Notes under the pieces: generated by a model
What the model was told of the DNA's origin: nothing
The model's database searches: none
The model's input: only the letters and a program-made list of their open reading frames with translations
Translations under genes and position numbers: made by a program
Shown here: one piece after another, positions 9,321 through 63,183 of the stretch
Layout: each line of letters starts with the position of its first letter
How positions within the stretch are numbered: the first letter of the stretch is position 1
Source: a virus
IMG/VR virus record: IMGVR_UViG_3300045581_000900
Span: 1-64,000 of that record
Length of the DNA: 64,000 bases
Reading direction: 5' to 3' (one strand)

Positions 9321-11498
9321 CTATACGTCGCTACGCACGATACCTGCAATTCGAAGGACGCCGACGTCGTTGTCGTACGCGTTGTCGTCTCGACGCTCGA
9401 TCGTCACCAACACGGTGTCGCCGGCCTGTACGCTGAACTCTTCGCTGTCGCACTCAACAACGACATCTCGCTGGAGTGACACCGACGACTCCGAGAAGTC
9501 GAGGTCGGTGTCTACCGTTGGAAGCTGCAGGCTGTTGTTATAGGGCCGCGGCAGGCGTCGATACGACATGTACAGTGTCGGCAGTTGCGACGGCGTGATA
9601 ACGTTGCCGCCGCGTCCGAACAGTCGGACCCGCACCTTCATTTTTAGGTTCTGGTCGGTGTTTACTTCCGGGATATTCAACCGCACCCGGAGCAGCGAGT
9701 TCTGGCCCGCCGGGAAACCCAGATACGGGATGTCCATGTACAGTCGCTCAACAGTGTCGCTAAGGCGGATGACCTGCGGAGAAATCTCGCGTTCAATCAG
9801 TTCGTCTGTATAGTCGATGCGGAGCAGGCCCTGATGCACAGGCACAGCGTCGTTTGTTGTGATACTTAAAGCTGTCTTTTCGGCCGCGGTCAGATAGCGG
9901 CCCGAGATAACTTTAAACGTGCCCGTGCCGGCGTCTGTTGTTGCCAGTGGTGTACCTTTTGCCGTAGTCGACAGCTTGAACGAGCTTTGCGTTAAATCTG
10001 TGTCGAGCACAAAGTATTCGGTATTCGCCAGCACGCCAGTTGGCAGGGTGCTGCTGGCGTCAGTCGTAAGCCTGACCTTTGTGCCGGCCGTAAAGCCGTG
10101 ATTAACTGTTGTAAAAATCGCCTCTTCAGCCACGGAGATCGTGACGGCTTTCGGCGTATGTCGACTGCCGGTCACGCTCAGATACGACGGAGTCGTTGTA
10201 ACGACGCCTTCGGTAACCCAACCGCGGGCCAGTTGATGGCGGTTCGCAACGCCCTTCACAGCCTGCCCGCCAATCGCCTCTGTCTTAGCGAACTGCAGGT
10301 CGACGTTGAGCTTGAGGTCACCCGTGGAGGCCGGCAAGTCGTCGCAGTTTGTGATTGCCACCGGGGCGACGATAGTCTCGCCATCGACCTCGTCCACGTC
10401 TTGCACGAGGCTGGTGACGACGCTGCGATCATTGCCGATAAGCATACGAAGGTAGATCACCACGATTCGCATGACTTCGTTACGCGGGCATTCGTTGCCA
10501 ATTAGCTGCCCCGGGTTATACGACGGCGACCAATTGTCCGGCCAAGGTACGTCCCGCCGGCAATCGCTCATCCACCAAATGCCATTAACATCTGCAATTG
10601 CGGCACCGCCAGCCCCAAGCGGTATTTCGCACGCCCCGAGTCGGCCCTTACCTCTGTCTCGAATCATCGCCACAGACTGGATCGGGATCGGCGGCCAGAC
10701 ACGATTGATCGCGTTATGCTTCTTCAGGTTGTAGCCAAAGACGGCACCCGGCGGAGCGTAGTTTGTGGCCGGGTCGTTCGGGTCACGGCGGAAGGTTGGA
10801 TGATCGGCCGGCAACCAGCCCTGTAATTCAGGATTAGGGTTGTCTATTCTGTGGCGTTGTTTACCGTCGTCATCCGTGTAAATAGTGTTTGTTCCGCAGG
10901 GTTTTGCGAACAACTCAAAGCGGTAGTGCGTGTGCTCTTCGATATAATCTCGTGTCTGCGGCATTACGAGCACGCGGAGCTTGTCGGAGCAGTTGTCACG
11001 CGGGCCTTGCACGTGGCAGACCACGACGGTCACGGGCGGCTTCTGCTTGGAGAGCTTGCCCGGCTCAACAGCCGATAGGTAATACTTGCCGGGGACAACC
11101 GTCTCGCCAATCGAGTTGGTCAGGTCGTTAAAAACAACTAAACCGCGAAGTACGATGTCTGCCCGGTCTTCTGCCTTTTTGCGGTAGCACATACCGACGC
11201 AGTCGCTGGACGGCTGGACGGTGAAGACCTGCGTGACCGGGTCCTGCTCCACGGCGACGAGAGCTTTCTCGTACCTATTGTTGGCCCAGTTCCAGTACAC
11301 CGGATGCCCGGGCAGTACGTCAGGAGAAACCGTGGCGTCGCCCTCGAAGATAGCCCGGCCGAGTTCCGCCGCGTCGAGGCGTTCTTTCAGATACTCGGTC
11401 CGCTCTTCGAGTGTGCGGTCCGGGCGGCCGACGATCCCAGCCTGTACGGGTTCGCCGGGCGTGACGTGCTTGATATTGTGGGGCCAGTTAGCGGACAT
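9321..11498 (-). CDS. Putative tail fibre / baseplate-attached protein
   Basis: 725 aa downstream of the baseplate wedge genes. Contains the NHGFTAGTKV...LPTG...YFV...FKLS beta module common in phage structural proteins. Confidence 0.55.
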   Translation of the reverse strand: MSANWPHNIKHVTPGEPVQAGIVGRPDRTLEERTEYLKERLDAAELGRAIFEGDATVSPDVLPGHPVYWNWANNRYEKALVAVEQDPVTQVFTVQPSSDCVGMCYRKKAEDRADIVLRGLVVFNDLTNSIGETVVPGKYYLSAVEPGKLSKQKPPVTVVVCHVQGPRDNCSDKLRVLVMPQTRDYIEEHTHYRFELFAKPCGTNTIYTDDDGKQRHRIDNPNPELQGWLPADHPTFRRDPNDPATNYAPPGAVFGYNLKKHNAINRVWPPIPIQSVAMIRDRGKGRLGACEIPLGAGGAAIADVNGIWWMSDCRRDVPWPDNWSPSYNPGQLIGNECPRNEVMRIVVIYLRMLIGNDRSVVTSLVQDVDEVDGETIVAPVAITNCDDLPASTGDLKLNVDLQFAKTEAIGGQAVKGVANRHQLARGWVTEGVVTTTPSYLSVTGSRHTPKAVTISVAEEAIFTTVNHGFTAGTKVRLTTDASSTLPTGVLANTEYFVLDTDLTQSSFKLSTTAKGTPLATTDAGTGTFKVISGRYLTAAEKTALSITTNDAVPVHQGLLRIDYTDELIEREISPQVIRLSDTVERLYMDIPYLGFPAGQNSLLRVRLNIPEVNTDQNLKMKVRVRLFGRGGNVITPSQLPTLYMSYRRLPRPYNNSLQLPTVDTDLDFSESSVSLQRDVVVECDSEEFSVQAGDTVLVTIERRDDNAYDNDVGVLRIAGIVRSDV

Positions 11499-11506
11499 CC
11501 TTGTCC
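11493..11506 (-). promoter_or_regulatory. CsrA/RsmA-type hairpin over start codon
   Basis: GGAC-AAGGAT-GTCC: 4 bp stem with ANGGAN loop; contains the ATG at 11498. Confidence 0.6.
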
Positions 11507-11518
11507 TCCGGCTGTTAT

Positions 11519-12154
11519 TTACTCAAACGCAATGTCCCACGTGAGGCCGATTTGCGAAGAAGCTTCTTTGGTGACCTGATTCGACGGAATAAACATTGTG
11601 CGGGCGAAGATGACGTCCTTCGTGCGGTCGCTGTACAGCGGTGCCGCCACGAGGGCCGCGGCGTATACCTTGCTGGTGCCGCCTTCAGCGTTGTGGCTGA
11701 ACGTCTTGCCGTGTACGCCCTGCGTGCCGACAGTCTGCACAAAGAACGTCAGCTTATTAAGCTGCTGCTCGACGGGCAGGTTTGCTTCATACCCGGCAGA
11801 CACCGAACCCGCTGGCTCGATAATCAGCGGGATGCGGAGGAAGTCGCGGTTGGGGGAGTCGACAAGGGCGTTGTAATAGTTGATTCCAACGTCGCGGGAA
11901 AACGGAGCGACCGAGATTTCATCTTCAGGGTCGGTCTGGTTCTCGAACTCGATATAGACCGCGGAAATGTTGTAGTTGTACCTCTCGGGGTTTGGGCGGT
12001 AGCCGATCTGCTTGGCGGCGATAAACCCCCACGAATACTGAATCTGGTTCTTTTGCGAGCCGGCCGGGATTTTTAGCCCGGTGGTTTCGTCAACCTGCCA
12101 CAGCGAGATGTGCCCGCGGACGCCATTTCCCACGCGAATCGTGTCGTCTGTCAT
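11519..12154 (-). CDS. Putative baseplate/tail-fibre attachment protein
   Basis: 211 aa; position after the wedge genes; C-terminal IFAR...K...IGLTWDIAF pattern. Confidence 0.5.
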   Translation of the reverse strand: MTDDTIRVGNGVRGHISLWQVDETTGLKIPAGSQKNQIQYSWGFIAAKQIGYRPNPERYNYNISAVYIEFENQTDPEDEISVAPFSRDVGINYYNALVDSPNRDFLRIPLIIEPAGSVSAGYEANLPVEQQLNKLTFFVQTVGTQGVHGKTFSHNAEGGTSKVYAAALVAAPLYSDRTKDVIFARTMFIPSNQVTKEASSQIGLTWDIAFE

Positions 12155-12161
12155 GCGTTCC

Positions 12162-14030: not shown

Positions 14031-14036
14031 ACCGGG

Positions 14037-15686: not shown

Positions 15687-15687
15687 T

Positions 15688-16209
15688 TCAGTTTCTCGGC
15701 ACGATTTCTATTGGCAGGATAATCTCCCGGGAGTCGCCGGCACGACTTATGATTTTAACACCTAGGCTAAGAAACGCCGCGGTTGTTCCGCTCGCCTGAG
15801 ATACATCAAACCCGGGTAAAATAGCCACGTTTAAAAGCTCGGCGTCGGAGAACCGTTCGTCCTCTGGGGTTGTGCTCGTTTCGTCCGCCTGTAAGTTTCG
15901 CCGGATCATGATATTGGCGGCCGCGAACTGAGCCCGAACGTTAATCGGTACACGAAATTGGCCGGTTCTGGCGGCTCGCATAAAATTCGTGCCGCGGTTG
16001 GGTAGCCCCGGCATCGAGCCACGCTCGGTCATAAATTCCAGCAGCCACCGCTGAGCGAGTTTCTGGATGCCCGTCGTGATTGCCCCAGACGTCGTTTTAT
16101 TAAACAGTTCCAGCCCGAGCTTTCTGTCGCGGCGACCGACGGTAACCGCAGTCGTATTCTGCAGGGCAAGGTAGTCGTATTTTCTGTTGACGTAGTCCGC
16201 CAGTGCCAT
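15688..16209 (-). CDS. Baseplate wedge / sheath initiator, gp25-like
   Basis: 173 aa; TGIQKLAQRWLLEFMTERGS...RGT; immediately upstream of the J-like gene. Confidence 0.65.
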   Translation of the reverse strand: MALADYVNRKYDYLALQNTTAVTVGRRDRKLGLELFNKTTSGAITTGIQKLAQRWLLEFMTERGSMPGLPNRGTNFMRAARTGQFRVPINVRAQFAAANIMIRRNLQADETSTTPEDERFSDAELLNVAILPGFDVSQASGTTAAFLSLGVKIISRAGDSREIILPIEIVPRN

Positions 16210-16214
16210 GTTAG

Positions 16215-16679
16215 TTACTCCCGCTTAGCCCCGAAATCAATTGCGGACTGGCAGCCGTCTTTGAGAAACGAAAAGATGCCTTTTTGCTGTTTGCCGTGGC
16301 CGTCGAGCCGGCCGTGTGCCAGCGACGCACAGCGAATCATGCTGGCATGCCGTGTTCTAAACGCCCGCTCCTCGACAGCCATAAAGTCGATTTGCCACTT
16401 GGTCGCCATGGCGTCGCCAAATGAGCCCGCCCCGTCGCCCGCATTTCCGACAATGTCATCCGAGTATGTCCTGTTTAAATTGTTTCGTTCCCATGTCGGG
16501 TTATGCAGGGACGGTACGTCGAGTGGGTCTTTAACAGCGTCTGGCGTGTGCCACTTCCGGTACTTTGTGTGATTGCGGAAATGTGCAGAAAAATCCTTGG
16601 CCTTTTTTTCAAGGTCATTAATCCGCTCTTCGAACATCGGGTCTATTTGTGCTTTTGGCCCGCCTTTTGGATGCCCCAT
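16215..16679 (-). CDS. Hypothetical protein
   Basis: 154 aa; AAGGTGA RBS; fills the operon. Confidence 0.65.
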   Translation of the reverse strand: MGHPKGGPKAQIDPMFEERINDLEKKAKDFSAHFRNHTKYRKWHTPDAVKDPLDVPSLHNPTWERNNLNRTYSDDIVGNAGDGAGSFGDAMATKWQIDFMAVEERAFRTRHASMIRCASLAHGRLDGHGKQQKGIFSFLKDGCQSAIDFGAKRE

Positions 16680-16687
16680 GATTCACC

Positions 16688-17497
16688 TTAAAAGTTGTGC
16701 TGATATCTGGCGTCGAGCATAGTTTGAATTTTTGCGGCACGTTGGCTGACCGCCCCCGGGCTGATGTTTAATCGACGGGCTATGTCCTGCGTCGACGCTT
16801 TTCGGCGACCATTACGACCTAGCGTCAAGTCCATAATCAGCTTATCAGTCGGCGACAGATCGCCGTAAACGAAGTCGAGCCACGCGTCGGTATTTTTTGT
16901 GTAATTTGGCAGTGTGCTTGCCAGATCAGTATTCGCGGCGTCTTCGCTGTCGCCGGCCCGCAGTGCTGTCATACCCTCTGCGATAGGCTGGTTGAAGCCG
17001 CGAATCTTTTTAATGCGGCGGGTCGACAGTCCCGTGGCGTCGGCGATCTCGTCATCAGTCGGGTCGCGGCTGAGTGCGTCTCGTAGTTCGTTCTCGGCGG
17101 CCGACAGTCGCTGAAAATCGAGCCCCACCTGCTCGGGCAAGGAAATGATGTTTTGCTCTTTTGCCGCGAGTCGCCGCAGACTCTGCAATTGCGACAGCAA
17201 ATGTGTTTTTACATTTCCACGCTGCGGGTCGTAAGTCTGCAACGCTTTCAGGGCCATCAATTTAGCCTTGTTTTTAATTGTCGGGCTGGCGTTGGCTCCG
17301 GCATAGCTGCTGACGGCGGTGTCGACGATGGGCTGTATTGTCCCAATTAGCTGCGTGTTCAATTCGGGTGTCTGTTGTTTTTGCCACTGCGGGTAAATAG
17401 CGTCAAAATCAGGCGACGCCCCGTAAGTCGTCTGCCCGGAAAAGGGCGGTTTTACGTCGCCTAGAATTGACGGCATGCCGTTGTTATTTTTTGCCAT
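16688..17497 (-). CDS. Sigma-70 family RNA polymerase sigma factor (alternative, FliA/SigD/SigB-like size)
   Basis: 269 aa; region 2 ALKALQTYDPQRG, region 3 LSRDPTDDEIADATGLS, region 4 HTH LSPTDKLIMDLTLG...STQDIARRLNISPGAVSQ. Confidence 0.85.
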   Translation of the reverse strand: MAKNNNGMPSILGDVKPPFSGQTTYGASPDFDAIYPQWQKQQTPELNTQLIGTIQPIVDTAVSSYAGANASPTIKNKAKLMALKALQTYDPQRGNVKTHLLSQLQSLRRLAAKEQNIISLPEQVGLDFQRLSAAENELRDALSRDPTDDEIADATGLSTRRIKKIRGFNQPIAEGMTALRAGDSEDAANTDLASTLPNYTKNTDAWLDFVYGDLSPTDKLIMDLTLGRNGRRKASTQDIARRLNISPGAVSQRAAKIQTMLDARYQHNF

Positions 17498-20367: not shown

Positions 20368-20850
20368 TTATTCTTTTTTAGGCAGCACTTCCATTCGCAG
20401 CGTCCAATAACCGACAGGGCCTGTGTCGCTCTGATTCAAATCTATTTTTACGCCGGTCAAAAATCCGTGCAGTTCGATTGCTTTACCGGTCGGCGTCAGC
20501 AACACAACGTCTAATGATTTGCCGCCCCGAGCCGCTGTTTTGTTTTTGTTGTAGTAGTCGTAAATCGCAAATATGTTTGCCCCTTCTTTGGCTCCGTCGC
20601 ACGTTTTAAGAAAACCGACTCCGGTAATAGTTAACAAACCGACGCGGTCGCCAAAGGCGTAAAAATAGACAAAGTCGTTTACTGTGTGCAAAAATTGGTA
20701 GTTGCCTGACAACTCTAGCGTGACACCGGTAACAACAAATTCGTTTGTGAACAGTTGATAGTCGAGAGCCACCACTAAAAAATCGTTTTGAGAGCACTCT
20801 TTTCGAGAGACCTCAACCGCACCGGTACATGGCGTGAAAACCATCGGCAT
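20368..20850 (-). CDS. Putative tail tube initiator (tube-fold)
   Basis: 160 aa right after the tape measure gene; YFYAFGDRVG resembles the tube's YYVGDRRRG. Confidence 0.5.
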   Translation of the reverse strand: MPMVFTPCTGAVEVSRKECSQNDFLVVALDYQLFTNEFVVTGVTLELSGNYQFLHTVNDFVYFYAFGDRVGLLTITGVGFLKTCDGAKEGANIFAIYDYYNKNKTAARGGKSLDVVLLTPTGKAIELHGFLTGVKIDLNQSDTGPVGYWTLRMEVLPKKE

Positions 20851-30335: not shown

Positions 30336-30797
30336 TCAGGTGTATTCGAGGTCGACGAACATGAAGCCCATGCTCTCCGTGACCACGATGTCCTGAGCCG
30401 TAACCGAGGCTCCGAGCGAGTTTAACGTCGCCGAGAGCATCTTGTAATTCATCTCGCCCTTGGTTCCACCGCAAGACGTCGCACCCACCTTCATGTCGAT
30501 GTGGTTGTTCGTCGCTTTGCAGATGTCGCCAAACTGTTGGATCATGTTCTTGAACGTTGCCGAGCCACCCACGATGCGGCTGAACTGAGCCGTACCACGG
30601 CGACGGTCGCCGACGTAGTACACCTTCGGCGAACCGATCTCATAGATCATGTTTACCGTTCGTTCGCACGTGAGTTGGGCCTGCTGGACCAACGCACCGT
30701 CCGCACCGCCGGCAGCACCCGGGAACTGAAGAGTTACGTCTTCCGCCCGAATGACGCCGTTGAGAGCCTGACTTTTTCCTTGAAAGACCGATGGCAT
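30336..30797 (-). CDS. Tail tube protein
   Basis: 153 aa directly after the sheath; IYEIGS...YYV motif; AAGGAG RBS. Confidence 0.8.
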   Translation of the reverse strand: MPSVFQGKSQALNGVIRAEDVTLQFPGAAGGADGALVQQAQLTCERTVNMIYEIGSPKVYYVGDRRRGTAQFSRIVGGSATFKNMIQQFGDICKATNNHIDMKVGATSCGGTKGEMNYKMLSATLNSLGASVTAQDIVVTESMGFMFVDLEYT

Positions 30798-30827: not shown

Positions 30828-33800
30828 TCAGACGACCAAGTGCAGTTCGATGTTGTTGAGCGGAGCCGGCACGACGAGGTCGAGCACGATCTCAATCCGG
30901 TCCTTCAACAGCGGGTGAACCTGCAGCTTTCGGATTTCACCCGAGATTAACTGCGAACCAAGCTCTTCCGTATTGCCGTTATTGGCGAGGAAGTTAATGA
31001 TCGTTTCCACTTCGAACTTCAGGCGACGCAGCATACCCGGCTGGACGTTGGTGCGGCCGATGAACGGACGCAGACGACGCAGGAACAGGTACGACATCGA
31101 GTCCACATTGCGGCGGATCATCTCTTCCCGACGGTTCAGGTCGAGGTTGTCCGTCGTCAGGGCGTGGCGGGTGTGCGGGGTGCCGTCGCGGTCTTCCGTG
31201 ACGATCCACACGCCGGCTTCTGCCATGCGGTTCAGTTGCGTTTCATTGAAGTACTTGTAGGACCGAGTGAAGTCGTCGAAACCGGCAACCTCGACGTTCG
31301 TCAGCGGCTGGTGGGGCACCACGCCGGAGACGAGACCGGCCAGAGCAGCGGCAAGGTAGTAACCCGGCTGGGTGATACCGGCCTCGCCGACCTGATCGGG
31401 CCACACCGCACAGATACGACGGTTCGAGAGCGAACCGGCCTGCTGTGCGAGGTCTTCCGCAACCTCGTTACGGTTACGGTTGTGCCAGATTTCAAACCGC
31501 TGCGGAACCGTCACGGCCGCGTCAGCACCCGTGTACAGGAGCAGCGAGTTTTCCGACAGCACCTGATCCACCACGTACTCTTCGTACTGCTCCTCGCCGA
31601 ACTGATCGACCGAGAAGTTGTAACGAACGATATCGCCGGGGCGAACGTCGTTGGTGATGAAGTAGCCGCTGGCGAAGTTCGTTCCCGTCGGCACCTGCAG
31701 CAGCGTGAACTGGCTGCCCGTGGCGTTCGGGTCGTCCTTCAGGGTGGCCAGCATCTCGTCTTCCATGACGTTGCCAAGCACGCCGCCGATCAGAGCATTC
31801 TGACCAACGACGAGTTGCTTCGGCTCCGCCTTGAGGGAGAAGAAGGCCGCCTTCCAGTTGTTGGCGATCTCGTTCGACTCGGCACCGACGTGGGCAGCCC
31901 AGAGGTTCTGCACAAGGCGGTCGTAAGTCAGCGGGATCAGGTTGTACATATCGTCGCGACCCTTGATACGCTCAAGGACCTGCACCCAGCTATCGAGGTC
32001 TGGGCCGGTGACGCGGTAGTTCTCCGGGTGGTATTCCACCGGATGAGCCACAGCGGTGTACTTCACGACCGTACCGTTGCTGTTCGAGAGGGCCTTGTAG
32101 ACGCCCCACTTCAGCGGGTTATCGGGGTGAAGCTGACCGGCGATATCGTCGAGGTCGGCCACGTCGCTGATCGAGTTAACCTCGTCGGCGAGTTCGGCCA
32201 AGAACTCACGATACTCGGCGTAAACCTTGCCCTTCTCGACAGGCAGCGGCTGCTCAGCACCAGCCGAGGTCCACTCGGGGTGATAGGCAGTGATGCCCTC
32301 TTGGACGCAGACCTGCGTGTCTTCGAACCAGTAGTTCGTAAGCTGGTCAGCTTCGGGACGAACGCGAGAAATCTCGATGTTGTCCTTGATGAACAGCTTC
32401 AGATCGAGCGGCACGTACCGCTCGTCGATGGCTTCGTCGTCACGCTGGAAACGGATCGGCGTGGTTCCGGGGATTACGGAGCCGGAGTTGGTCAGAACCC
32501 AACCCGAGCCCTCGTAGGTGACACCGGCGGTGACGCCGAAGTAAATGTTCTTAACAAGCTCTTGCGTGGTGTCAGCGTCCGTGGCACGAGTCCAAGCCCC
32601 CTCAGCCGCGACGTAAACACCGTTCTCGGTCTCTTCGTCTTGGTTGACGACGAGCACGCGGTTGCCAGACTCAACCATAACGCCGTCGATATTCTGAAGA
32701 CCGGACAGCGTGATGTTCGTGTCAGCAACAACGCGGACAGGGGTCTTGACCGTCGAGGCACGGATGTAGGTGTCACGCATCTCCGAGGGGAGATCGTCAC
32801 GGAGGATGAGCTTACGGACCGGACCAGCCTTGCTGGAAACCACAGCCACGTAGAACTTGTCACCCTTGCGGAGCTTGGCGTCGATGAACGCCTGAGCCAC
32901 CGCACCCGTGCCTTCGCCACCCTCGAACGTCACCGACGGCGGGTTGTAGTAGCCGCTACCGGGGTTGGTGATGGTGATGCTGTTTACCGAGCCGGCCTGA
33001 TTGATCGTGCAGGTCGCAGTGGCCTGAACGCCAGTCGGATCGTCGGGGGCACTGAGCACGACAGTCGGGGCAGACTCGTAGGTGCTGCCGCCGTTGTCGA
33101 GGTCGATCGCTTCGACCTTACCCGGAGCCTTGATGACAACCTTCACGCCGTTCGTGCCGATGCCAACCTCGCCGCCGTTCTCGACCACTTCGGTCGGACC
33201 AGAGAAATCGAGGCCCTTCACCGTACGCACAGTGATCTCGGGGAAGCCGACGAGGTCGCCGTCTTCCACCGCGTCGAACGTGCCGCCCTTGGTGACCTCG
33301 ACGATATAAACGTCATTCTTGGCACCGTTGTAGGCACCAGCGATGTCGCCGTCGGGCTGGACTTCGAACTGACCGTCAGCGGCCGAGTCGACTTCCGTAG
33401 CATTGAACTCTTGCTTGACGTTCACCACCCACTTCTGGCCGGTCACAAAGTTGTCATAAACAACTTCGTTCGCCGCGGCAGCTTCAAGGCAGCCTTCGAC
33501 GTCGGTCAGGTCGAACTTCACACGCAGGCCGCGGGTGCCGATGTTGGTCCACTCGCCGAAATCGGCCGGCTGGACTTCTTCGACATTATCGCGGCTCGAC
33601 GCCGAACGAACACGCAGGCGAGCCGCGTTGCAGCCCGAGATCGTGCTCTTGATAACTTGAATCGTGTACTCTTCTTCAACGTCACCGCTCTGGATGCCGC
33701 TGTAATCCGAGCCGTCAACCTCAACAAGCTTAATGCAGTTAACACGACCCGCAACCTGCAGGTAGTTGTTATCCGCGTCTGGCTCGTCGACGTAGTAGGC

Positions 33801-34364
33801 CGTATTGGGCTGGTTGTCGTCGTCGGCTTCGGCCGGCTTGATCAGCGACGGCACGAGGTCCGAGGCGAAACCGACCACTTCGGTCCACAGTTCGACTTCG
33901 AGGCAGTCGCCGTCACGGTCGACAACCGTGCGGAGATATACAACGTCACCGGCCTTCACGTCGCGGTCGAGGAAGTCGCTGCTACGCGGGTAGGCCGAGG
34001 TATTGGACTTGAAAGAAAGGTCGTCGGACTGAATCCAATTGAACTTGCCCTCAACCGTAGTGATACGGGTGTAGGTGCTCTGCAGGTCGTGCTCGAAATA
34101 CTTGAGCAGGGCGTCGTCCATATAGACCTTGGCGTAAGCAAGGTCGACGATCGAACCCGGACGACGCTGCGGCCAGCCATAGCAGACGTCGTTCAGACGG
34201 TCGTACTGGCCGAGCAGAATCGTCTTCTTCTCGTCGCGATCGCTATAGCGGTGCAGGATAGCGTGGGCACCGGCGATATGAGCACGCAGCGGTTCCGTGA
34301 TTTCGGTCGGAACGATGCGGAACTCTTGGAAGACTAATACTTGTGGTTTTACGTAACTAGACAT
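30828..34364 (-). CDS. Tail sheath protein with inserted surface domains
   Basis: 1178 aa; YVKPQVLVFQE N-terminus; C-terminal sheath core (LAAALAGLVSG...QPLTN...RHALTT...RRNVDSMS...PAPLNNIELHL). Confidence 0.88.
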   Translation of the reverse strand: MSSYVKPQVLVFQEFRIVPTEITEPLRAHIAGAHAILHRYSDRDEKKTILLGQYDRLNDVCYGWPQRRPGSIVDLAYAKVYMDDALLKYFEHDLQSTYTRITTVEGKFNWIQSDDLSFKSNTSAYPRSSDFLDRDVKAGDVVYLRTVVDRDGDCLEVELWTEVVGFASDLVPSLIKPAEADDDNQPNTAYYVDEPDADNNYLQVAGRVNCIKLVEVDGSDYSGIQSGDVEEEYTIQVIKSTISGCNAARLRVRSASSRDNVEEVQPADFGEWTNIGTRGLRVKFDLTDVEGCLEAAAANEVVYDNFVTGQKWVVNVKQEFNATEVDSAADGQFEVQPDGDIAGAYNGAKNDVYIVEVTKGGTFDAVEDGDLVGFPEITVRTVKGLDFSGPTEVVENGGEVGIGTNGVKVVIKAPGKVEAIDLDNGGSTYESAPTVVLSAPDDPTGVQATATCTINQAGSVNSITITNPGSGYYNPPSVTFEGGEGTGAVAQAFIDAKLRKGDKFYVAVVSSKAGPVRKLILRDDLPSEMRDTYIRASTVKTPVRVVADTNITLSGLQNIDGVMVESGNRVLVVNQDEETENGVYVAAEGAWTRATDADTTQELVKNIYFGVTAGVTYEGSGWVLTNSGSVIPGTTPIRFQRDDEAIDERYVPLDLKLFIKDNIEISRVRPEADQLTNYWFEDTQVCVQEGITAYHPEWTSAGAEQPLPVEKGKVYAEYREFLAELADEVNSISDVADLDDIAGQLHPDNPLKWGVYKALSNSNGTVVKYTAVAHPVEYHPENYRVTGPDLDSWVQVLERIKGRDDMYNLIPLTYDRLVQNLWAAHVGAESNEIANNWKAAFFSLKAEPKQLVVGQNALIGGVLGNVMEDEMLATLKDDPNATGSQFTLLQVPTGTNFASGYFITNDVRPGDIVRYNFSVDQFGEEQYEEYVVDQVLSENSLLLYTGADAAVTVPQRFEIWHNRNRNEVAEDLAQQAGSLSNRRICAVWPDQVGEAGITQPGYYLAAALAGLVSGVVPHQPLTNVEVAGFDDFTRSYKYFNETQLNRMAEAGVWIVTEDRDGTPHTRHALTTDNLDLNRREEMIRRNVDSMSYLFLRRLRPFIGRTNVQPGMLRRLKFEVETIINFLANNGNTEELGSQLISGEIRKLQVHPLLKDRIEIVLDLVVPAPLNNIELHLVV

Positions 34365-34367: not shown

Positions 34368-34383
34368 AAGGCCTCCATGCCTC
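34368..34383 (-). promoter_or_regulatory. CsrA/RsmA-type hairpin over the sheath RBS
   Basis: GAGGC-ATGGAG-GCCTT. Confidence 0.55.
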
Positions 34384-37014: not shown

Positions 37015-37110
37015 TATTGCCCTCCTTAAGGCAAAGTCTTTTACCCAAAGACTCTGGGGAGTACTGCTAGCCGACGATACATATCGCCGGAATGCTAGGT
37101 TCCTCATATG

Positions 37111-37138
37111 ATATACCCTGTTTTTGTCGGTTATTTAG
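37111..37138 (-). promoter_or_regulatory. Putative phage promoter CTAAATA-N14-GGTATAT
   Basis: One of three copies with identical 14 nt spacing, each upstream of an island gene. Confidence 0.75.
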
Positions 37139-37154
37139 AGCCGCTCGAATAGCT

Positions 37155-37183
37155 AAAAAAAGCCCCCAATGGTCTGGGGGCTT
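37155..37183 (-). terminator. Intrinsic terminator
   Basis: AAGCCCCCA/TGGGGGCTT stem running into T7. Confidence 0.8.
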
Positions 37184-37189
37184 GAGTGA

Positions 37190-37770
37190 AATGTGGGCCG
37201 GTCGGGAAGGCTAGCTTCTTCCCGACCGGCCATCCCCCGTTAACACCTGATTGTCACACACAATCAGTTCACTGTGTTACGGGCTCGTTGTTTACCGGCC
37301 GTGACGGCAACACCACAACGTCGGTCGCCCTAGGGCTGTGGACAGGGGGTACAACGAGAAAACATGCTCGCACAGGATTGGGCCATGCGAGCGTGGCGTA
37401 AATTTAGGCGGCACCCAGATTTACAGTCTCCGAACAATCCCATCAGAGTTTCGGCAACCTACGATCTGGGCAGAAAACAGTTTGTTACTTTCAAAGAACT
37501 TACCGGCGTTTCGGTTTCCCGACGTCCCGGTATTCGGACTCGATTTCACAATAAGGGTGCTGCTGCCAACCACCCCGAGGCTGCCTGTGCCGACAAGACA
37601 CAGGCTTTTTGTCCAAGGGCTTCACCTACGAAAGCCTTTGTTCCGTTCGGACCAGTACCGCCTAAAGCGACGAGCCCCCAGAGCGACGACGGAACAAGCG
37701 TCGCTCCAAGGGCGTATTAAACGTATTCATAGTTAGGGAAAGGGCATCTTCGACCTCCTTTCAGGAGCCG
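37190..37770 (-). ncRNA. Candidate large structured non-coding RNA (~580 nt), family unknown
   Basis: No minus-strand ORF of 60 aa or more; at least 10 helices including a perfect 14 bp stem (37196-37231), a 12 bp long-range stem (37403-37414 with 37655-37666) and a GAAA tetraloop; ends at a terminator. Confidence 0.6.
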
Positions 37771-37776
37771 CCTACG

Positions 37777-42973: not shown

Positions 42974-43900
42974 TCAGACAAACGTTACCTTAGCGAGACC
43001 GTTCGTGTGACCGAACGAGCCGCCTTGCGTGTTATAGGCGAAGTACTCAAGCATGTAGGCCTCACGACGGATATACATCGTGGTGGGCTCAAGCTCGTAG
43101 TTCTTGCCGATGAACTTCGGCGAGGCGAACATGTACAACACGTCGTTCGGGACGAGGTTCCGCTTGATCGTGACGATCCAGCGGCAGTTGAGGAAGTTGG
43201 TCTCCGCCCAACCGTTCTTGATGATGTCCTGCGAGAAGTCACCACCCATCTCGTCGCGACCGAACTTGAGGAGTTCCTTGATCGTGATGTTATTCACGAG
43301 GCAGGTCTCAACCTCAAAGTGGCTGGGAGTCGAGGGCATAACCTTCAGGGCATCAACAATCGTCTCGCGGGTGATACCGCCCGAGATCGTGACGTTCTGC
43401 GGAACGCCCGAAAGCGGGTTGTTGGTGTCAACCGTACCGACAGCGGCGTCCATCGCGGTGATGAACTTCGAGTCCTCTTCGGCGAGCATGTCCTTGATCA
43501 TGTTGTCGCTGAGCACCTGACGGATGTCGATGACATACGTGCGGAGTTCGTCGACGTCCTTCACAGCACGGGGCGACACGATCCGGTCAAACATGACGCG
43601 GTAACGCGGGCCACGGATGTAGAAGTTGATCGGGAGCGTCGCAAACGGAAGCGACACAGCCGCCGGGGAATCGGGCTCCTTGTCGACCACCTTCACCGGC
43701 TTGTCCGTGTCAACCTGACGATCGAGTTCGTCGTTGGTGATGGTCAGCGGCGGGATGATCCGACGGTAGAACCCGTCTTCACGCATCTTGGTACGCGTGA
43801 AGTCGTTAACCGCATCAATGGCCTGCTTCTGCATGCCGGGAGTGTCAAGCTGCTCAAAGAGCGTTTCATTGAGCAACTGGATTTCTTGCTGAGTGGGCAT
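42974..43900 (-). CDS. Major capsid protein (HK97 fold expected)
   Basis: 308 aa from ATG 43900 with GGAGG RBS; strong codon bias; protease-scaffold-decoration-capsid gene order. Confidence 0.75.
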   Translation of the reverse strand: MPTQQEIQLLNETLFEQLDTPGMQKQAIDAVNDFTRTKMREDGFYRRIIPPLTITNDELDRQVDTDKPVKVVDKEPDSPAAVSLPFATLPINFYIRGPRYRVMFDRIVSPRAVKDVDELRTYVIDIRQVLSDNMIKDMLAEEDSKFITAMDAAVGTVDTNNPLSGVPQNVTISGGITRETIVDALKVMPSTPSHFEVETCLVNNITIKELLKFGRDEMGGDFSQDIIKNGWAETNFLNCRWIVTIKRNLVPNDVLYMFASPKFIGKNYELEPTTMYIRREAYMLEYFAYNTQGGSFGHTNGLAKVTFV

Positions 43901-43903: not shown

Positions 43904-43921
43904 AAAGACCTCCATGTCTTC
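43904..43921 (-). promoter_or_regulatory. CsrA/RsmA-type hairpin over the capsid RBS
   Basis: GAAGAC-ATGGAG-GTCTTT. Confidence 0.55.
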
Positions 43922-43935: not shown

Positions 43936-44493
43936 TCACGGTGTCCAGTCGGTTGCACCCGGCAGCCAGACGCACCAAAACGAAAGGGCCTGAATACCAT
44001 TGTGGTTCGTTGTGGCACCACTGGACACCACGCCCACAACCGGGGTTTCATACTGCACGACGCTGTCGTTCGTCAGCACACCGTCCGTCGAAGCCGGGCT
44101 GGCCGTCGTGGTAGCGGTGAGCAGATCGCCCGGCACGTAGTCCTGCTCGGCGTCGAACTCCGTGGTGGAGATTTCGTAGCCGCCAGTTGCAACGAGACCC
44201 GACAGCTTGCCGGTCGGGGCGACAGCGAGGTGCATGAACTTACCACCGGCAGTTGTGCCGGGGTTAGCGACGTCCGCGTCGGTGCTGCCGTTGAGCAGGA
44301 AGATCGCTACGTTCGTCTTGGAGACGCCCGGAACGAAATCGCCGTTCGCGTCAACGTGAACAACCCGCCCACGCTTTACGTCGAAGTCGATGCTGGGCGA
44401 CAGCTTGGCACTGTAGTCCAGCGAAGCCATATCGAACCAGCCCTTCTTAACGTCAAGGCCGTGTTCAAACATCAGATCAGGAGCGTTAGCCAT
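43936..44493 (-). CDS. Putative capsid decoration/cement protein
   Basis: 185 aa, beta-rich; YVPGDLLT...VVGVVS; directly upstream of the capsid gene. Confidence 0.6.
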   Translation of the reverse strand: MANAPDLMFEHGLDVKKGWFDMASLDYSAKLSPSIDFDVKRGRVVHVDANGDFVPGVSKTNVAIFLLNGSTDADVANPGTTAGGKFMHLAVAPTGKLSGLVATGGYEISTTEFDAEQDYVPGDLLTATTTASPASTDGVLTNDSVVQYETPVVGVVSSGATTNHNGIQALSFWCVWLPGATDWTP

Positions 44494-44495
44494 TT

Positions 44496-44513
44496 TTAGA
44501 CCTCCATGTCTAA
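44496..44513 (-). promoter_or_regulatory. CsrA/RsmA-type hairpin over the decoration-gene RBS
   Basis: TTAGAC-ATGGAG-GTCTAA. Confidence 0.55.
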
Positions 44514-50591: not shown

Positions 50592-50981
50592 TTACCGCAG
50601 GGTCGGGGTGTCCACCGTGACCGAGAACACGTAGTTCTTCGTGCCTGTGCCAGCCGGCGTAATTTTCAGATATAAATACCGCACGGGCGTCGAGGGCTTG
50701 CCGTCCCGGTTCAGATACGACAGGTTTAAGTCCTCGTCAGCCGGCGTGGCCTGATCAAATGAAAGCAGCTTGAACGCGGCTTCGGGCAGCGTGCTGTTTG
50801 GGGCCTCGTCCCGCTTGCTGGTATACAACGTCGCGGTGAAATCGCCCGTGGCTCCGCCAGCGGCTTCTACAAGGCTGTAGCCCTTCAAAATACCGCGGTG
50901 CGGCATCGGGATATCAATAACCGACGCCTCGCCGGCGGGAACAGTAAACGACTTGCTACCAGACCAAACTGTGCTCGGCAT
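50592..50981 (-). CDS. Hypothetical beta-rich protein
   Basis: 129 aa; AAGGTGA RBS. Confidence 0.65.
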   Translation of the reverse strand: MPSTVWSGSKSFTVPAGEASVIDIPMPHRGILKGYSLVEAAGGATGDFTATLYTSKRDEAPNSTLPEAAFKLLSFDQATPADEDLNLSYLNRDGKPSTPVRYLYLKITPAGTGTKNYVFSVTVDTPTLR

Positions 50982-50990: not shown

Positions 50991-53384
50991 TTAAATGTTA
51001 GCGGAAGGCCCAAGATCGACATCGCCGGCCGACTCCTCGGGGAACGGCTCGATGGTCTTCTGCTTGAGGAAGAGGATCACGTCGCCCAACATCTCGAACG
51101 CGTTGCGGAGCGAATCTTCCAGTTCCGGCATATCGGCCTTGCCGTAGCGATCGGCGAACCGGTCGCCATGCCAATAGAACATGAACAGGATGCGGCCCAG
51201 CTTGTCGAGACCCTTGGTAAGCTCACCCATGTAGCGGTCCACAAGGCCGTCATCCCGCACGGCCCGAAGCATGGTGCCGATCATGGCGGTGTCAAACACC
51301 TCACGCTGGCCAGTTTGGGCCGCCTGCATCACCTGCTGCACGGCACCCTGATCCAGTTGCGTGTTGGGGTTGTACACGCTGCGATCCGTCTGGCTAGCCG
51401 ACATACCCGGCACGGGCACACCGACGTCGATGCCAAGCTGCGTGGGGACGCTCGTCCCCATGATGGTCTCGCCGCCCATGACCGGCCCCGGGTCTGCCGG
51501 GGCTGTGGGGGCGTTCTGGATCATCATCGGCGAGCCATACGGGTTTGCGTACTTCACGTGGCAGGCAAACTTCCGCTTAGCCTTGGCACGCGAAAGAATT
51601 TCGCGTGCATTTTTTTCGCGAAGGCCGTGCTTGGCGACCAGCGAAACAAGGGCTTGCTTCTCCGAAAGCTCCTTCTCGATCAGTTGTTGCTTCGGGCTGT
51701 GAATCTCGACGGCCGTGCCGTTGTGATACACCGTCAGGCTCGACAGCTTCTGCATGATTACAAGCTGGGCGTCAGCCAGATTGCCCGGCATCAGCGGCGG
51801 ATTGTCGCTCTCGCCGCAGCCGCAGGAGCCCTGACCGCCCTCAGCCGCGTCGGCCACATCGTCTTCGCCCGGAGCACACTTTAAGAGCTTATACGTGCTC
51901 GGCACGAAGATGTCGCCCATGCTGGAGCGGATCGAGCCGCCGCCCTTGGCGTTTAAATGAATTCTGACGCCGTCGCGGTACTTGTCGTAGTTCAGCGGGT
52001 CGGTGTAGCAGCAGGGCGAAATTGAGCCCTTGGGCGGGAACTTGGAGTGATCCTCCATGTGAACTTCGTAGGCATTTCCGCCGAACTCAGTCTCGCCGTA
52101 CTCACGAATCACGCGGAACGGCACCGTGGTATCGCCCGACTTGCAAATCGCCATGTACCGGCCGTTTTTGGAGAGACTGGTGGCGTCAGGCAGGCCGTTG
52201 AGCCATGTATCAAATTCGTCGCCTTCCACGCGGGAGAAGCAGAATACGTGGTCGGCACGGGTGTTGATCCACTCAGGCCTGCCTTCGGTACGGACGACGG
52301 TCACAAAGTCAGACCGCTTGGCGGGCCCTTGTGGATATACCGCGACGTAGCACTTTTCGATCTCGCCCGGCTTGACTAGCACCATGTACAGGCCGCTCTG
52401 GGTGGGATTGAACAGTTTTTGCTCAACCTGAATCTGGTACGGCACCGAGACGTTATCCCGATCCCGCTGGTCGAGAATAAGCACGCCATCCCGCAGCAGC
52501 TTTTCTTGGTCTTCCTCGGTATGCCCGGGCGGAAGAGCCGTCTGCGTCGTGGCGTCGTACGTAATGACTTTCAGCGTCTCTTTCGCCTTGGGCGTCTCCG
52601 GGGCGTCAGAAAGCACGCTGGCGATCTTAGTCGCGTTCTGGCGGGCACTGGCGGCACTGATAGCCTCGCTAATAACGTCTAAACCGTGGAATTCGTCAAT
52701 CGCCTGAGCCAGATGCGGGGCGTACTGGCAGGTTTTAACAAGAGCCGAAATCGTATCCATTCCGGCCTGCTTGAGAAACGCCTTGAGGTTCAGCTTGTGG
52801 CCGAGTTCTTCAAACGCCAGCTTCGTGTTCATCGTGGCGGTCTTGGCCAGTGTCGGCATCACCGCGGTCATCATCTCCTTCAGCGTCGGTTGGGCCGAGC
52901 CGAACTTGGCGGGGCTGCGGGAAAGCTGCGTAAAATCAGGCTGCCGCTGGCCGAACTGGGTGAGATTCTTATCAATGCCGCTGCCCAGAATGCTGGGCTT
53001 GCGGTTGACGAGATAGTTGACCCAGTTTTCCTTGAGCGGGACGAACATATCCTGATTCTTGATATACAGGAGTTCGTGGCCTTTGAGGTCGCCGTTCAGG
53101 AAGAAAACCGGGGCATACAGCCACATGGAGCCGACCTTGAACGCAAAAACACCGACAGCCTTGGTGTTTTCCCGATTGCGGTCGAGAAGTTGAAAGCCGA
53201 TCTCGTGGTCCAAAAGCTTCGGAGCAGAATCCCGAAGATAGGCGTGGGCCAGATTAGAAAAAGCCTGTTCAAACGCCACGTCGTCACCGCGGCCACCAAT
53301 CTCGGCGGTTTTAGTGCGGTCGTGAGACCGGACGACGTTTAACCAATGCTTCCACGAGGCTTCTTTTGACTTTTTATTAAACAC
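50991..53384 (-). CDS. Large putative head protein
   Basis: Start moved to GTG 53384, which has a GGAGG RBS; K-x-A motifs (KEA, KTA, KLA, KQA, KIA, KYA). Confidence 0.6.
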   Translation of the reverse strand: MFNKKSKEASWKHWLNVVRSHDRTKTAEIGGRGDDVAFEQAFSNLAHAYLRDSAPKLLDHEIGFQLLDRNRENTKAVGVFAFKVGSMWLYAPVFFLNGDLKGHELLYIKNQDMFVPLKENWVNYLVNRKPSILGSGIDKNLTQFGQRQPDFTQLSRSPAKFGSAQPTLKEMMTAVMPTLAKTATMNTKLAFEELGHKLNLKAFLKQAGMDTISALVKTCQYAPHLAQAIDEFHGLDVISEAISAASARQNATKIASVLSDAPETPKAKETLKVITYDATTQTALPPGHTEEDQEKLLRDGVLILDQRDRDNVSVPYQIQVEQKLFNPTQSGLYMVLVKPGEIEKCYVAVYPQGPAKRSDFVTVVRTEGRPEWINTRADHVFCFSRVEGDEFDTWLNGLPDATSLSKNGRYMAICKSGDTTVPFRVIREYGETEFGGNAYEVHMEDHSKFPPKGSISPCCYTDPLNYDKYRDGVRIHLNAKGGGSIRSSMGDIFVPSTYKLLKCAPGEDDVADAAEGGQGSCGCGESDNPPLMPGNLADAQLVIMQKLSSLTVYHNGTAVEIHSPKQQLIEKELSEKQALVSLVAKHGLREKNAREILSRAKAKRKFACHVKYANPYGSPMMIQNAPTAPADPGPVMGGETIMGTSVPTQLGIDVGVPVPGMSASQTDRSVYNPNTQLDQGAVQQVMQAAQTGQREVFDTAMIGTMLRAVRDDGLVDRYMGELTKGLDKLGRILFMFYWHGDRFADRYGKADMPELEDSLRNAFEMLGDVILFLKQKTIEPFPEESAGDVDLGPSANI

Positions 53385-53387: not shown

Positions 53388-53403
53388 GCCACCTCCATGC
53401 GGC
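53388..53403 (-). promoter_or_regulatory. CsrA/RsmA-type hairpin over RBS
   Basis: GCCGC-ATGGAG-GTGGC. Confidence 0.55.
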
Positions 53404-55412: not shown

Positions 55413-55637
55413 TTAGTTTTTTGGCGGCGGAGGAAGTTCATTCACTGTCGGGGCCGGCGTGGTAACGCCGGCCATTTTTAACACCGTAGCAAAGTCATTG
55501 TCGCCGACAGCGGAATACACAATCCCCTCTGCCACGTGAGTTGCGACAAAGATCGGGTTCTTTAGGTCGTCTTCAATGACAACCGTATGAGCCTTCGTCT
55601 CTGCCGGAATTAAATTATGCTGCGTTTTAACCAGCAT
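55413..55637 (-). CDS. Small hypothetical protein
   Basis: 74 aa; overlaps the upstream stop. Confidence 0.6.
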   Translation of the reverse strand: MLVKTQHNLIPAETKAHTVVIEDDLKNPIFVATHVAEGIVYSAVGDNDFATVLKMAGVTTPAPTVNELPPPPKN

Positions 55638-56343
55638 GATTCGTCAAACTCCGGCACAGGGCGGCGACGGCACTTGCTTTCGTTTGAAGATCGAACGTTT
55701 CTGGCGTCGACGGGGTTGAAGACACACTGGGATCAATCGGCCGCCCGATAGAGCGGGCAGCGTGCGTATCTACCGCGTCCCACCAGTTGGCCATCTTCGG
55801 GGCACCGGCGTCGGGCGGCATAGGAGCACCGCCAGCCGCGGCCGGATCACCGCCCGGCGGAGCCGCAGGCGGAGGAGCCATTGGACCGCCGGGAAGGGCG
55901 GTTTCCGCCGGCGGAGCACCGGTTGTGCCGGGCGGCAGCACCAGCGATTCAGGAGCAACCTGCACGCCCATCGCGTTCATGATCGCCGTAAGTTGCTGCT
56001 GCATGTTGTAAAGCCGGTAATCGAGCATTTGCATCATCTGCTCAGGCTTAAGTTTCTGACCGCCTGCGGCACCACCAGCGGGAGCCGGGGCTGGCTGTGC
56101 GGGCGGCAGAGCACCCAGCATCGACGGGTCCATCATTCCCGGCGGAACAGCACCGCCAGCCGCCGCAGGGTCGCCAGCCGGAGGAGCCGCACCCATCGCT
56201 GCCTGCATCGGGTCAGCGGGCGGAACAGCACCTTGAGCCGCGGCAGCCGGGTCCATACCGCCACCGGGAGGCACCACAGCCGACTTTTCAAACAGAGCCC
56301 GCTTGGCGAGCGATAACAATTCGGGATTTACCGTATAGGACAT
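55627..56343 (-). CDS. Pro/Ala/Gly-rich low-complexity protein
   Basis: 238 aa; GGAGG RBS; KRA, KSA, KMA motifs; DPAAA repeats. Confidence 0.7.
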   Translation of the reverse strand: MSYTVNPELLSLAKRALFEKSAVVPPGGGMDPAAAAQGAVPPADPMQAAMGAAPPAGDPAAAGGAVPPGMMDPSMLGALPPAQPAPAPAGGAAGGQKLKPEQMMQMLDYRLYNMQQQLTAIMNAMGVQVAPESLVLPPGTTGAPPAETALPGGPMAPPPAAPPGGDPAAAGGAPMPPDAGAPKMANWWDAVDTHAARSIGRPIDPSVSSTPSTPETFDLQTKASAVAALCRSLTNHAG

Positions 56344-56344
56344 G

Positions 56345-56360
56345 ACTACCTCCGTGTAAT
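56345..56360 (-). promoter_or_regulatory. CsrA/RsmA-type hairpin over RBS
   Basis: ATTAC-ACGGAG-GTAGT. Confidence 0.5.
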
Positions 56361-56366
56361 ATCAAG

Positions 56367-60794: not shown

Positions 60795-60799
60795 GGCTC

Positions 60800-61915: not shown

Positions 61916-61922
61916 AATGCAC

Positions 61923-62270
61923 CTACTTGGGCGGAATCATGCCATAGACCTGACACCACTCCAGCCAGACTCTGTAATGTTTTTTTTCTTCGTCCCAGTG
62001 GTTTTCACGTTTTTGCAACATGTACCAGCCGTTAACAATCTTATCATTTATGTCGTCAAATTCGTTTTTTTGCGACACGTCCCATAGTTCAAACAGTTTC
62101 GACTTGAAATCGAGCCGAAAATCTATGCCTTCTAGCTCTTCCTGCTTTAAGTTCGGTGTGACGCCGGCTGCGGCGAGTACGGGGAACCCTTCAGGCGTCC
62201 CGGGCCAATGAAGCCGATTATTGCCGTGCTGCTCCCCCGCAACTTCACCGAAGTACTTCCTTGTACTCAC
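61923..62270 (-). CDS. Hypothetical protein
   Basis: 115 aa; GTG start with GGAG RBS. Confidence 0.65.
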   Translation of the reverse strand: MSTRKYFGEVAGEQHGNNRLHWPGTPEGFPVLAAAGVTPNLKQEELEGIDFRLDFKSKLFELWDVSQKNEFDDINDKIVNGWYMLQKRENHWDEEKKHYRVWLEWCQVYGMIPPK

Positions 62271-62284
62271 AAATCACTCCGTTA

Positions 62285-62683
62285 TTAAAGGCCCTGAGCT
62301 TTCCGATACTTCAGATATGCCTGCCGAGCTTTTAAACGATCGGTGTACGCCTTGTAGGTGTTCGCGAGTTCTTGAGCCTTGATATCGTCTTCCGTGACAT
62401 CCGGCTCGTTGAGTTTTGCCAGCCCGTAGCCACCTGCGGCACCAGCGGCCAAACCGAGCCCGACCGGCACTCCGACGGCTAATGTGGCGACCGGCTTGGC
62501 CGCCTCCACAAGGGCTTTTGCCCCGCCACTAATAGCAGACCCTACGCCCAGTAAGTCAAGAGATGCTTTTTCAAGCCAGACGGCTCGCTCGCAGGCCGCC
62601 TTTTGCGATAATTTTTCTTCACGGCAGCGGGCGGCGAACCCAAGCTGAAAAGCTGTCTTGGCGTCAATATTGGCAAAATCCAT
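62285..62683 (-). CDS. Small Gly-zipper protein
   Basis: 132 aa; AFQLGFAARC; VGLGLAAGAAGGYGLA. Confidence 0.65.
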   Translation of the reverse strand: MDFANIDAKTAFQLGFAARCREEKLSQKAACERAVWLEKASLDLLGVGSAISGGAKALVEAAKPVATLAVGVPVGLGLAAGAAGGYGLAKLNEPDVTEDDIKAQELANTYKAYTDRLKARQAYLKYRKAQGL

Positions 62684-62684
62684 G

Positions 62685-63176
62685 TCACTCTCCCGGCAGA
62701 ATTAATTTTTTGGGGCCTGTGTTCGGCCCACCCATTGTAAAATCTGGGGCGACATGTTTTCCAGTGTCTTTTCCGAGCGGAAGCATGCCGGGCAGGCGAG
62801 TTGAAAAATCAGCCGCACTCGCCAAAGAAATACGGCTTTTTCGGTTCGGGCGGTGCTTTGTAAACCACTCGTCGACCTTGGGGTCGTTGCGGTCGCCCTG
62901 CTCTTTGGCCTCGTTTGTGCAGGCGACCATGTCCTCAATCGCCTTGATAAGCTCGCTGCGGTCGGCCGAGAGCCAGACGGCCTTGCTGGGATTTTCAGCG
63001 GCAATCGAGCGGAGCCGGCGGGCTTCGTCGGACAGGGCCTGAGCCCGCAAGAGAAATTCTTTACGCGTTAAAACGTAAAACTCACCGGTATCTTCGTCAT
63101 GCAGGCAGACAAAACCGTTTTCGGCGTAAAACTTAAGCCCGCGGAACGTGTAACACTTGCCGGTGACCTTTTGCAT
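62685..63176 (-). CDS. Hypothetical protein
   Basis: 163 aa; ends KKLILPGE. Confidence 0.65.
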   Translation of the reverse strand: MQKVTGKCYTFRGLKFYAENGFVCLHDEDTGEFYVLTRKEFLLRAQALSDEARRLRSIAAENPSKAVWLSADRSELIKAIEDMVACTNEAKEQGDRNDPKVDEWFTKHRPNRKSRISLASAADFSTRLPGMLPLGKDTGKHVAPDFTMGGPNTGPKKLILPGE

Positions 63177-63183
63177 CCTTGCA
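63172..63183 (-). promoter_or_regulatory. CsrA/RsmA-type hairpin over start codon
   Basis: TGC-AAGGAT-GCA containing the ATG at 63176. Confidence 0.5.

Follow-up and report, generated by a model that had tools for sequence, protein, structure and literature searches.

Phage-encoded CsrA proteins are usually assumed to manipulate the bacterial host. Alleles of csrA from phages and plasmids have been catalogued, and about 1% of the phage genomes carry one (Sobrero and Valverde, 2020; PMC7366521). The phage csrA gene PTXU04_00028 affects plaque size, a role described as previously untested (PMC11879866). In phage CSP3 a gene for a 'CsrA-like regulator' is located inside the head-gene module (PMC10269572). 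The same annotation is present inside the head-gene modules of two podoviruses unrelated to the phages discussed below, F116 (33363-33569, locus L150) and Bcep22 (31170-31364, locus L155). In Bcep22 the gene is positioned directly upstream of the major head gene, and in F116 the early region contains another CsrA match. The head-module position in all three phages is a hint of a link between csrA and virion genes. As to the RNA, the consensus of RsmE is given as A/U-CANGGANG-U/A (Schubert et al., 2007, as quoted in PMC6849547). The consensus of CsrA obtained by systematic evolution of ligands by exponential enrichment (SELEX) is given as RUACARGGAUGU with GGA in a hairpin loop (Dubey et al., 2005, as quoted in PMC4347634). 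In the literature we found no described CsrA target set in a phage genome. The subject of this analysis is a group of short hairpins at translation starts of an uncultured phage. The window, i.e., the whole stretch of DNA analysed, comprises the first 64 kb (64,000 nucleotides) of a 111,939-bp viral contig from IMG/VR (IMGVR_UViG_3300045581_000900, termed G000), about 55% complete according to CheckV.

A preliminary description of the window had listed seven hairpins of the form C-ANGGAN-G. All seven motifs are present on the minus strand, on or just before start codons. Almost every gene of the contig is on the minus strand, which therefore is the sense, i.e., mRNA strand. Six of the seven have stems of 4-6 bp (G-U allowed), a closing C-G pair and a 6-nt loop A-N-GGA-N. 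As a sequence, the site consensus C-ANGGAN-G is equal to the RsmE consensus and fits the SELEX consensus of CsrA. We propose that the hairpins are operators of an RNA-binding protein of the CsrA family, most likely the CsrA of the phage itself, and assign to this reading a probability of roughly 60%.

In the contig 117 genes were called, with starts chosen partly by Shine-Dalgarno score. The sense strand was searched, at start sites and elsewhere, for NNGGAN hexaloops on stems of 4 bp or more, G-U allowed; neither an A at loop position 1 nor a C-G closing pair was imposed by the search. At start sites 11 of 84 GGA motifs possess such a stem, compared with 34 of the 1360 sense-strand motifs located away from starts (Fisher p = 2.7e-5). 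When the 5' arms are permuted among start sites, a procedure which preserves position-specific composition and is conditioned on the chosen starts, 1.66 hairpins are expected against the 11 observed (p < 5e-5). The hairpins are thus clearly enriched at starts, and this extends to GGAGG-type sites taken alone (hairpins in 9 of 22 at starts vs 2 of 53 elsewhere).

The excess is replicated in relatives. A capsid search of IMG/VR returned 65 related loci with 54-99% identity, many of them on contigs of 190-235 kb, and hence we consider these phages a clade of uncultured ~200-kb phages. Complete relatives and controls were processed identically to the contig. All five csrA-carrying relatives have more hairpins than expected: G011 (16 observed vs 2.9 expected, p = 2e-4), G003 (12 vs 3.1, p = 3e-4), G005 (29 vs 5.4, p = 3e-4), G004 (14 vs 2.5, p = 2e-4), and G013 (11 vs 4.7, p = 0.007). 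A different picture emerges for genomes devoid of csrA, i.e., G006 (2 vs 4.4, p = 0.94), G007 (6 vs 3.5, p = 0.13), G008 (3 vs 2.6, p = 0.49), and Salmonella phage Arash (5 vs 2.2, p = 0.07). Arash is the only one of these which reaches p = 0.01 at a 5-bp threshold (4 vs 0.8). The plain motif CANGGANG is present at 97 of 844 starts in four clade genomes vs 17 of 819 in four outgroups.

The geometry of the hairpins is narrowly defined. Loop size (4-8 nt) and the position of the GGA were combined in 20 ways, and NNGGAN is the sole enriched register in the clade (68 vs 13.3), together with the 4-nt and 8-nt readings nested in it; in four outgroups without csrA no register is enriched (16 vs 14.4). 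An A occupies loop position 1 in 96% of the 68 hairpin sites, compared with 38% of start-site GGA motifs which lack a hairpin. The closing pair is C-G in 66% of the 68 sites, and the loops comprise AAGGAG, ACGGAG, ATGGAG, and AAGGAT. GGAG is contained in most loops; GGAU, GGAC or GGAA is found in about a fifth. The spacing from GGA to the start codon is 6-10 nt in 53 of the 68 sites. In eight the GGA is fused to the AUG. GGA-AUG fusions carry a hairpin of at least 3 bp in 15 of 25 clade genes vs 2 of 28 genes of csrA-less outgroups, and in G005 the form AGGAGGC-ANGGAU-GCC recurs among them. Since the GGA is too close to the AUG for a Shine-Dalgarno role, hairpins of this class cannot be explained as Shine-Dalgarno presentation.

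The stems differ in sequence and keep their pairing, as originally noticed; compensatory changes are evident at orthologous sites. The best example is the major-capsid-like gene 42974-43900 (minus strand). Its hairpin, GAAGAC-AUGGAG-GUCUUU (43904..43921, minus strand), covers the ribosome-binding site, occupies the greater part of the 35-nt gap which follows the upstream gene and is part of the minimum-free-energy fold (-5.4 kcal/mol). Across relatives the stems read GAAGAC/GTCTTT, AGAAC/GTTCT, GGAAC/GTTCC, GGAC/GTCC, GCAC/GTGC, TAAC/GTTA, and GATC/GATC around an almost invariant loop A-Y-GGAG. In 43 distinct leaders, each from a relative, the covariation score is 0.365 vs 0.129 +/- 0.023 after shuffling, and 0 of 500 shuffles reach the observed value. 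Cells changed on both sides number 34 vs 13, and every slid register scores lower. The AUG within the loop is in frame with the capsid reading frame in the window, hence the list of open reading frames starts it at 43915. This AUG of the loop at 43910-43915 was considered as the true capsid start and rejected, since it meets an in-frame TAA in relatives.

The second line of evidence is the regulator. A host lacking CsrA together with a phage encoding none would have spoken against the preliminary description, and its reading passes this check: csrA (PF02599) is present in all 16 clade genomes which are at least 90% complete (7/7 and 9/9) and in none of five more distant relatives. In G011, the closest complete relative (198 kb with terminal repeats, a 98% identical capsid and a gene order collinear with the contig), csrA is located near 156.3 kb. 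With contig position 3139 corresponding to G011 position 164841, synteny places the gene some 5 kb outside the contig, past its truncated start. As the contig is truncated and the position can be read from G011, we infer that the G000 phage itself carries csrA.

The CsrA proteins of the clade look functional as judged from their sequences. In seven of them the equivalents of M1, L2, V3, L4, R6, R44, and E46 are invariant, with variation at H43 and E45. L2, L4, R6, R44, and E46 (E. coli numbering) are the RNA-binding residues of CsrA according to an alanine scan and the RsmE structure. The best match of the G005 protein in the PDB is RsmE (2JPP, E = 1.9e-16). Presumably, the clade CsrA binds the hairpins. 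In G004, a 224-kb relative, csrA (L067:1162-1653) encodes a tandem CsrA-CsrA fusion of 163 amino acids (aa) with an insertion of about 20 aa in the second repeat, possibly a single-chain dimer. Two further clade genomes, G021 and G027 (the records of loci L047 and L037), each have two separate CsrA-family matches far apart from each other. Autoregulation of csrA was considered and not adopted: a clear start-site hairpin is found at the fused csrA of G004 only (atcga-AAGGAG-tcgat), and none is clear at the others.

The remaining sites of the window, all on the minus strand, reproduce these features. Directly upstream of the capsid gene, UUAGAC-AUGGAG-GUCUAA (44496..44513) covers the ribosome-binding site of a 185-aa gene (43936-44493). 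It is conserved in about 40 relatives with variant stems, e.g., gcat/gtgc and gtgaac/gttcac. GAGGC-AUGGAG-GCCUU (34368..34383) is at the ribosome-binding site of the tail-sheath-like gene 30828-34364 (minus strand; 1178 aa), the C-terminus of which is of the tail-sheath type. The orthologous sites are gaggc-ACGGAG-gcctt in G011 and ggc-ACGGAG-gcc in G003. A 1306-aa gene of G005, probably the sheath ortholog as suggested by matching size, has tggac-ACGGAG-gtcta. The neighbouring putative tail-tube gene (30336-30797) has no hairpin. GCCGC-AUGGAG-GUGGC (53388..53403) covers the ribosome-binding site of a 797-aa gene with a GTG start (50991-53384); the stems are tgccgc/gtggcg in G011 and cagc/gctg in G003, and G005 has ggg-AAGGAA-ccc. 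AUUAC-ACGGAG-GUAGU (56345..56360) is at the ribosome-binding site of a 238-aa gene (55627-56343) situated between phage RNA-polymerase genes. G011 has a different 7-bp stem there (tgtttac-ATGGAG-gtaaata); G003 has none.

In two of the seven sites GGA directly abuts the AUG, exactly as had been reported. At GGAC-AAGGAU-GUCC (11493..11506) the AUG of gene 9321-11498 is at the junction of loop and stem, and a separate GGAGGA Shine-Dalgarno sequence directly upstream brings the number of GGA motifs to two. This site is the same in G011 and G003, and in G005 a different 7-bp stem encloses ACGGAU. The other, UGC-AAGGAU-GCA (63172..63183), overlaps the AUG of gene 62685-63176; it is a weak 3-bp candidate with only 2 bp in G011 and is not significant alone. 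Several sites had been missed. GAGUAC-AAGGAA-GUACUU (62251..62268) begins at the last base of the GTG codon which starts gene 61923-62270, about 15 nt past its ACGGAG Shine-Dalgarno sequence. Beyond the window five further sites are present at contig positions 64711, 74998, 106836, 108989, and 109498.

Also outside the window, a 374-aa gene (contig 107854-108978) has a 9-bp hairpin, ttgttgtca-AAGGAC-tgacaatgg, with the AUG buried in the stem. The hairpin is retained in the G011 ortholog, where two compensatory changes have occurred. This could be a start-codon-sequestering switch and might act in the manner of ymdA, which is discussed below. Other genes of the contig use another start style, as had been observed: (G)AGGTGA exactly 3 nt before ATG in seven contig genes, often directly after the upstream stop (6717-8363, 8372-9313, 16215-16679, 16688-17497, 20368-20850, 50592-50981). 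The abutting stops suggest translational coupling in those genes.

The assignment of virion genes and of the host is as follows. The capsid-like protein shares 27-28% identity with the annotated capsid of Salmonella phage Arash and with proteins of Vibrio phage D69, and it matches PHROG 2522. A capsid search in 185,579 species genomes gave matches only in bins of metagenome-assembled genomes, one Nannocystaceae and one unclassified; two such matches are too weak to name a host. One 15.7-kb contig from a bin of an uncultured Nannocystaceae (L152, CAZVEM010000126.1) encodes a capsid 67% identical to that of the window. Its binning is a weak host hint or an artefact of binning.

How much of the preliminary description can be upheld? 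It had interpreted the hairpins as CsrA/RsmA sites which block ribosome loading. The circumstantial evidence for the site itself is strong, i.e., the motif consensus, the single register, the A at loop position 1, the GGA-AUG class and the csrA genes of the clade. Binding and repression stay predictions drawn from sequence. It had further inferred that virion-protein synthesis is gated. Among the hairpin genes, the capsid-like and sheath-like ones are assigned to virion families; the remaining ones have no family assignment, and the gene 55627-56343 is placed among RNA-polymerase genes. That the hairpins tie assembly to the metabolic state of the host is pure speculation.

Several observations weigh against a CsrA operator function. 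On the G000 contig, which is about 55% complete, no CsrA was found. In the closest lineage, that of G011 and G012, CsrA is divergent: ISRHEL replaces VHREEI, 4 aa are inserted, and the score against B. subtilis CsrA is only 22.7 bits. The hairpins have weak stems (-1.0 to -6.6 kcal/mol), and the local minimum-free-energy fold contains the hexaloop hairpin in only about half of the cases. A typical CsrA target offers at least two GGA sites, which the dimer can bridge. Here, a second GGA is weakly enriched (on average 1.29 further motifs vs 0.95 in other genes, p = 0.02), and about half of the sites (5 of 11 in the contig) have none within -60..+30. Part of the resemblance to a CsrA site comes from the Shine-Dalgarno sequence itself, since a strong GGAGG preceded by C yields C-ANGGAG-G. 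The csrA-positive genomes with hairpins all belong to one clade, and thus the association of csrA and hairpins is effectively a single evolutionary event. Unrelated phages which carry csrA do not repeat it: F116 has 1 hairpin vs 1.0 expected and 0 CANGGANG sites; Bcep22 has 4 vs 0.7, but these have non-A loops, and two of them are in reading frames called on the wrong strand. These two results are unsupportive, yet they do not refute a csrA-hairpin link specific to the clade. Finally, the usual antagonists were not found. Rfam at gathering threshold detects no family in the window, CsrB/Rsm RNAs included. GGA and ANGGA densities, computed for 27 intergenic gaps and for sliding windows, reveal no GGA-dense non-coding region in four genomes, so the search for a GGA-rich sponge RNA which the preliminary description had suggested came out negative. 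FliW has no homologue in five complete clade genomes. A gene-free gap of 762 nt (37015-37776) has a very stable predicted fold on the minus strand (-307 kcal/mol). As a CsrB-like sponge it was rejected, with 12 GGA vs 9.8 expected and no hexaloop hairpin.

The main rival explanation dispenses with a ligand altogether. The hairpins could be cis structures which keep the GGAG of a strong Shine-Dalgarno sequence single-stranded and insulated from the GC-rich polycistronic mRNA, with high and predictable translation of abundant proteins as the result. The loop GGA(G) is indeed a Shine-Dalgarno sequence at normal spacing in most sites (6-10 nt, 53/68), the capsid and sheath genes have the highest protein demand, and the predominance of single GGA sites together with the lack of a detected antagonist or sponge would cause no difficulty. 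However, the putative tail-tube gene lacks a hairpin, and four relatives with the same GGAGG-type Shine-Dalgarno sequence and a similar GC content show no significant excess. Exposure alone requires neither a single register nor an A at loop position 1 in 96% of the sites, and the GGA-AUG class, which has no Shine-Dalgarno function, is nevertheless hairpinned in 15 of 25 cases. Ligand-free Shine-Dalgarno presentation is therefore disfavoured by the outgroups, the register, the loop A and the GGAUG class, and we regard it as unlikely. Still less can be said for hairpins which are a functionless by-product of composition or of start choice. Starts were chosen partly by Shine-Dalgarno score and the motif was defined on the same data by an earlier reader. 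Against this stand a permutation conditioned on the chosen starts, the replication in five other genomes, its absence from four identically processed controls, and the compensatory changes at orthologous sites, which together make such an origin hardly credible.

If a ligand exists, it need not be the phage CsrA. Host CsrA/RsmA, one of the two candidates named in the preliminary description, could be the binding partner; virion synthesis would then follow the Csr state of the host and the phage protein would act on host mRNAs or compete. The motif equals the cellular CsrA/RsmE consensus (PMC6849547, PMC4347634), and given the similarity of the G005 protein to Pseudomonas RsmE, host and phage proteins would probably recognise identical sites. 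Yet the hairpin excess tracks the phage csrA gene (six csrA-positive vs four csrA-negative genomes), and for some phages with csrA the host chromosome itself has no such gene (PMC7366521). We consider a host ligand improbable. Other phage factors are conceivable, such as a GGAG endoribonuclease of the RegB type, a RegA-like repressor or a signal for mRNA stabilisation or processing. The RegB nuclease of phage T4 cleaves GGAG in Shine-Dalgarno sequences, and most conserved loops contain GGAG. Here, homologues of RegB (PF10715) and RegA (PF01818) were not matched in the contig or in four complete clade genomes, about one fifth of the loops are not GGAG, and CsrA, for which the clade has a gene, is the better match to the motif. 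Consequently, the odds for such a factor are very low.

A CsrA operator function, in turn, would work in a straightforward manner. The hexaloop would present A-N-G-G-A-N, with the GGA being either the core of the Shine-Dalgarno sequence or fused to the AUG. A bound CsrA dimer would occupy the very site needed by the 30S subunit and compete with it, as is canonical for CsrA. Translation would thus be held down for a set of proteins comprising the capsid, its upstream neighbour, the sheath, the 797-aa, 725-aa, and 238-aa proteins and others. Repression would end once late mRNAs outnumber CsrA, or by some other relief or antagonist. The Shine-Dalgarno sequence is in the loop rather than in the stem, and therefore occlusion and repression are the simpler outcome; repression is more likely than activation, as at ymdA, or mRNA protection. 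A more far-reaching proposal is that the clade operates a private Csr circuit in which a core CsrA acts on the hairpins of its own capsid, its sheath and a dozen or more genes, as a titration threshold or an assembly-coupled brake independent of the host. For this, the chances appear evenly balanced.

With this reading, the likely targets of a phage CsrA can be read directly from the genome, as conserved, covarying, operator-like hairpins on its own high-copy structural genes. If true, a CsrA encoded by a virus would for the first time have a defined set of targets, and the question of what a virus does with CsrA becomes a simple bench test. It would suggest that post-transcriptional titration serves large phages to time or balance the synthesis of virion proteins. 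Furthermore, it may offer compact, orthogonal repressor-operator pairs for synthetic biology.

Compared with established systems, the closest parallels are repression of hcnA by RsmE and of glgC by CsrA. There as here, a short A-N-GGA-N hexaloop hairpin closed by C-G is positioned on the Shine-Dalgarno sequence or the start codon, and the CsrA of the clade retains the N-terminal MLxLxR and the R44 equivalent of RsmE (PDB 2JPP) and E. coli CsrA. The differences are likewise obvious. The base after GGA is mostly G in the phage, deriving from GGAGG, and not U as in the RsmE/CsrA consensus. The putative phage targets mostly have one GGA, and neither a sponge RNA nor FliW was found. Above all, the putative regulator and its targets reside in the genome of a lytic-type jumbo phage and not in a bacterial chromosome.

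At ymdA CsrA also acts at a leader hairpin around the Shine-Dalgarno sequence (PMC7492729). However, it opens a hairpin which sequesters the Shine-Dalgarno sequence in its stem and thereby activates, whereas in the phage this sequence is in the loop. In the Hag-FliW-CsrA system of B. subtilis CsrA binds a Shine-Dalgarno hairpin in the mRNA of a very abundant, self-assembling structural protein, which is the situation proposed for capsid and sheath. It would be a natural model for a coupling of synthesis to assembly, even though the five complete clade genomes have no FliW homologue. Lastly, the clade shares with phages of the F116, Bcep22, and CSP3 type the possession of a csrA homologue. In those phages the targets are undefined, whereas here csrA is a core gene of a ~200-kb clade and its putative regulon is visible in cis.

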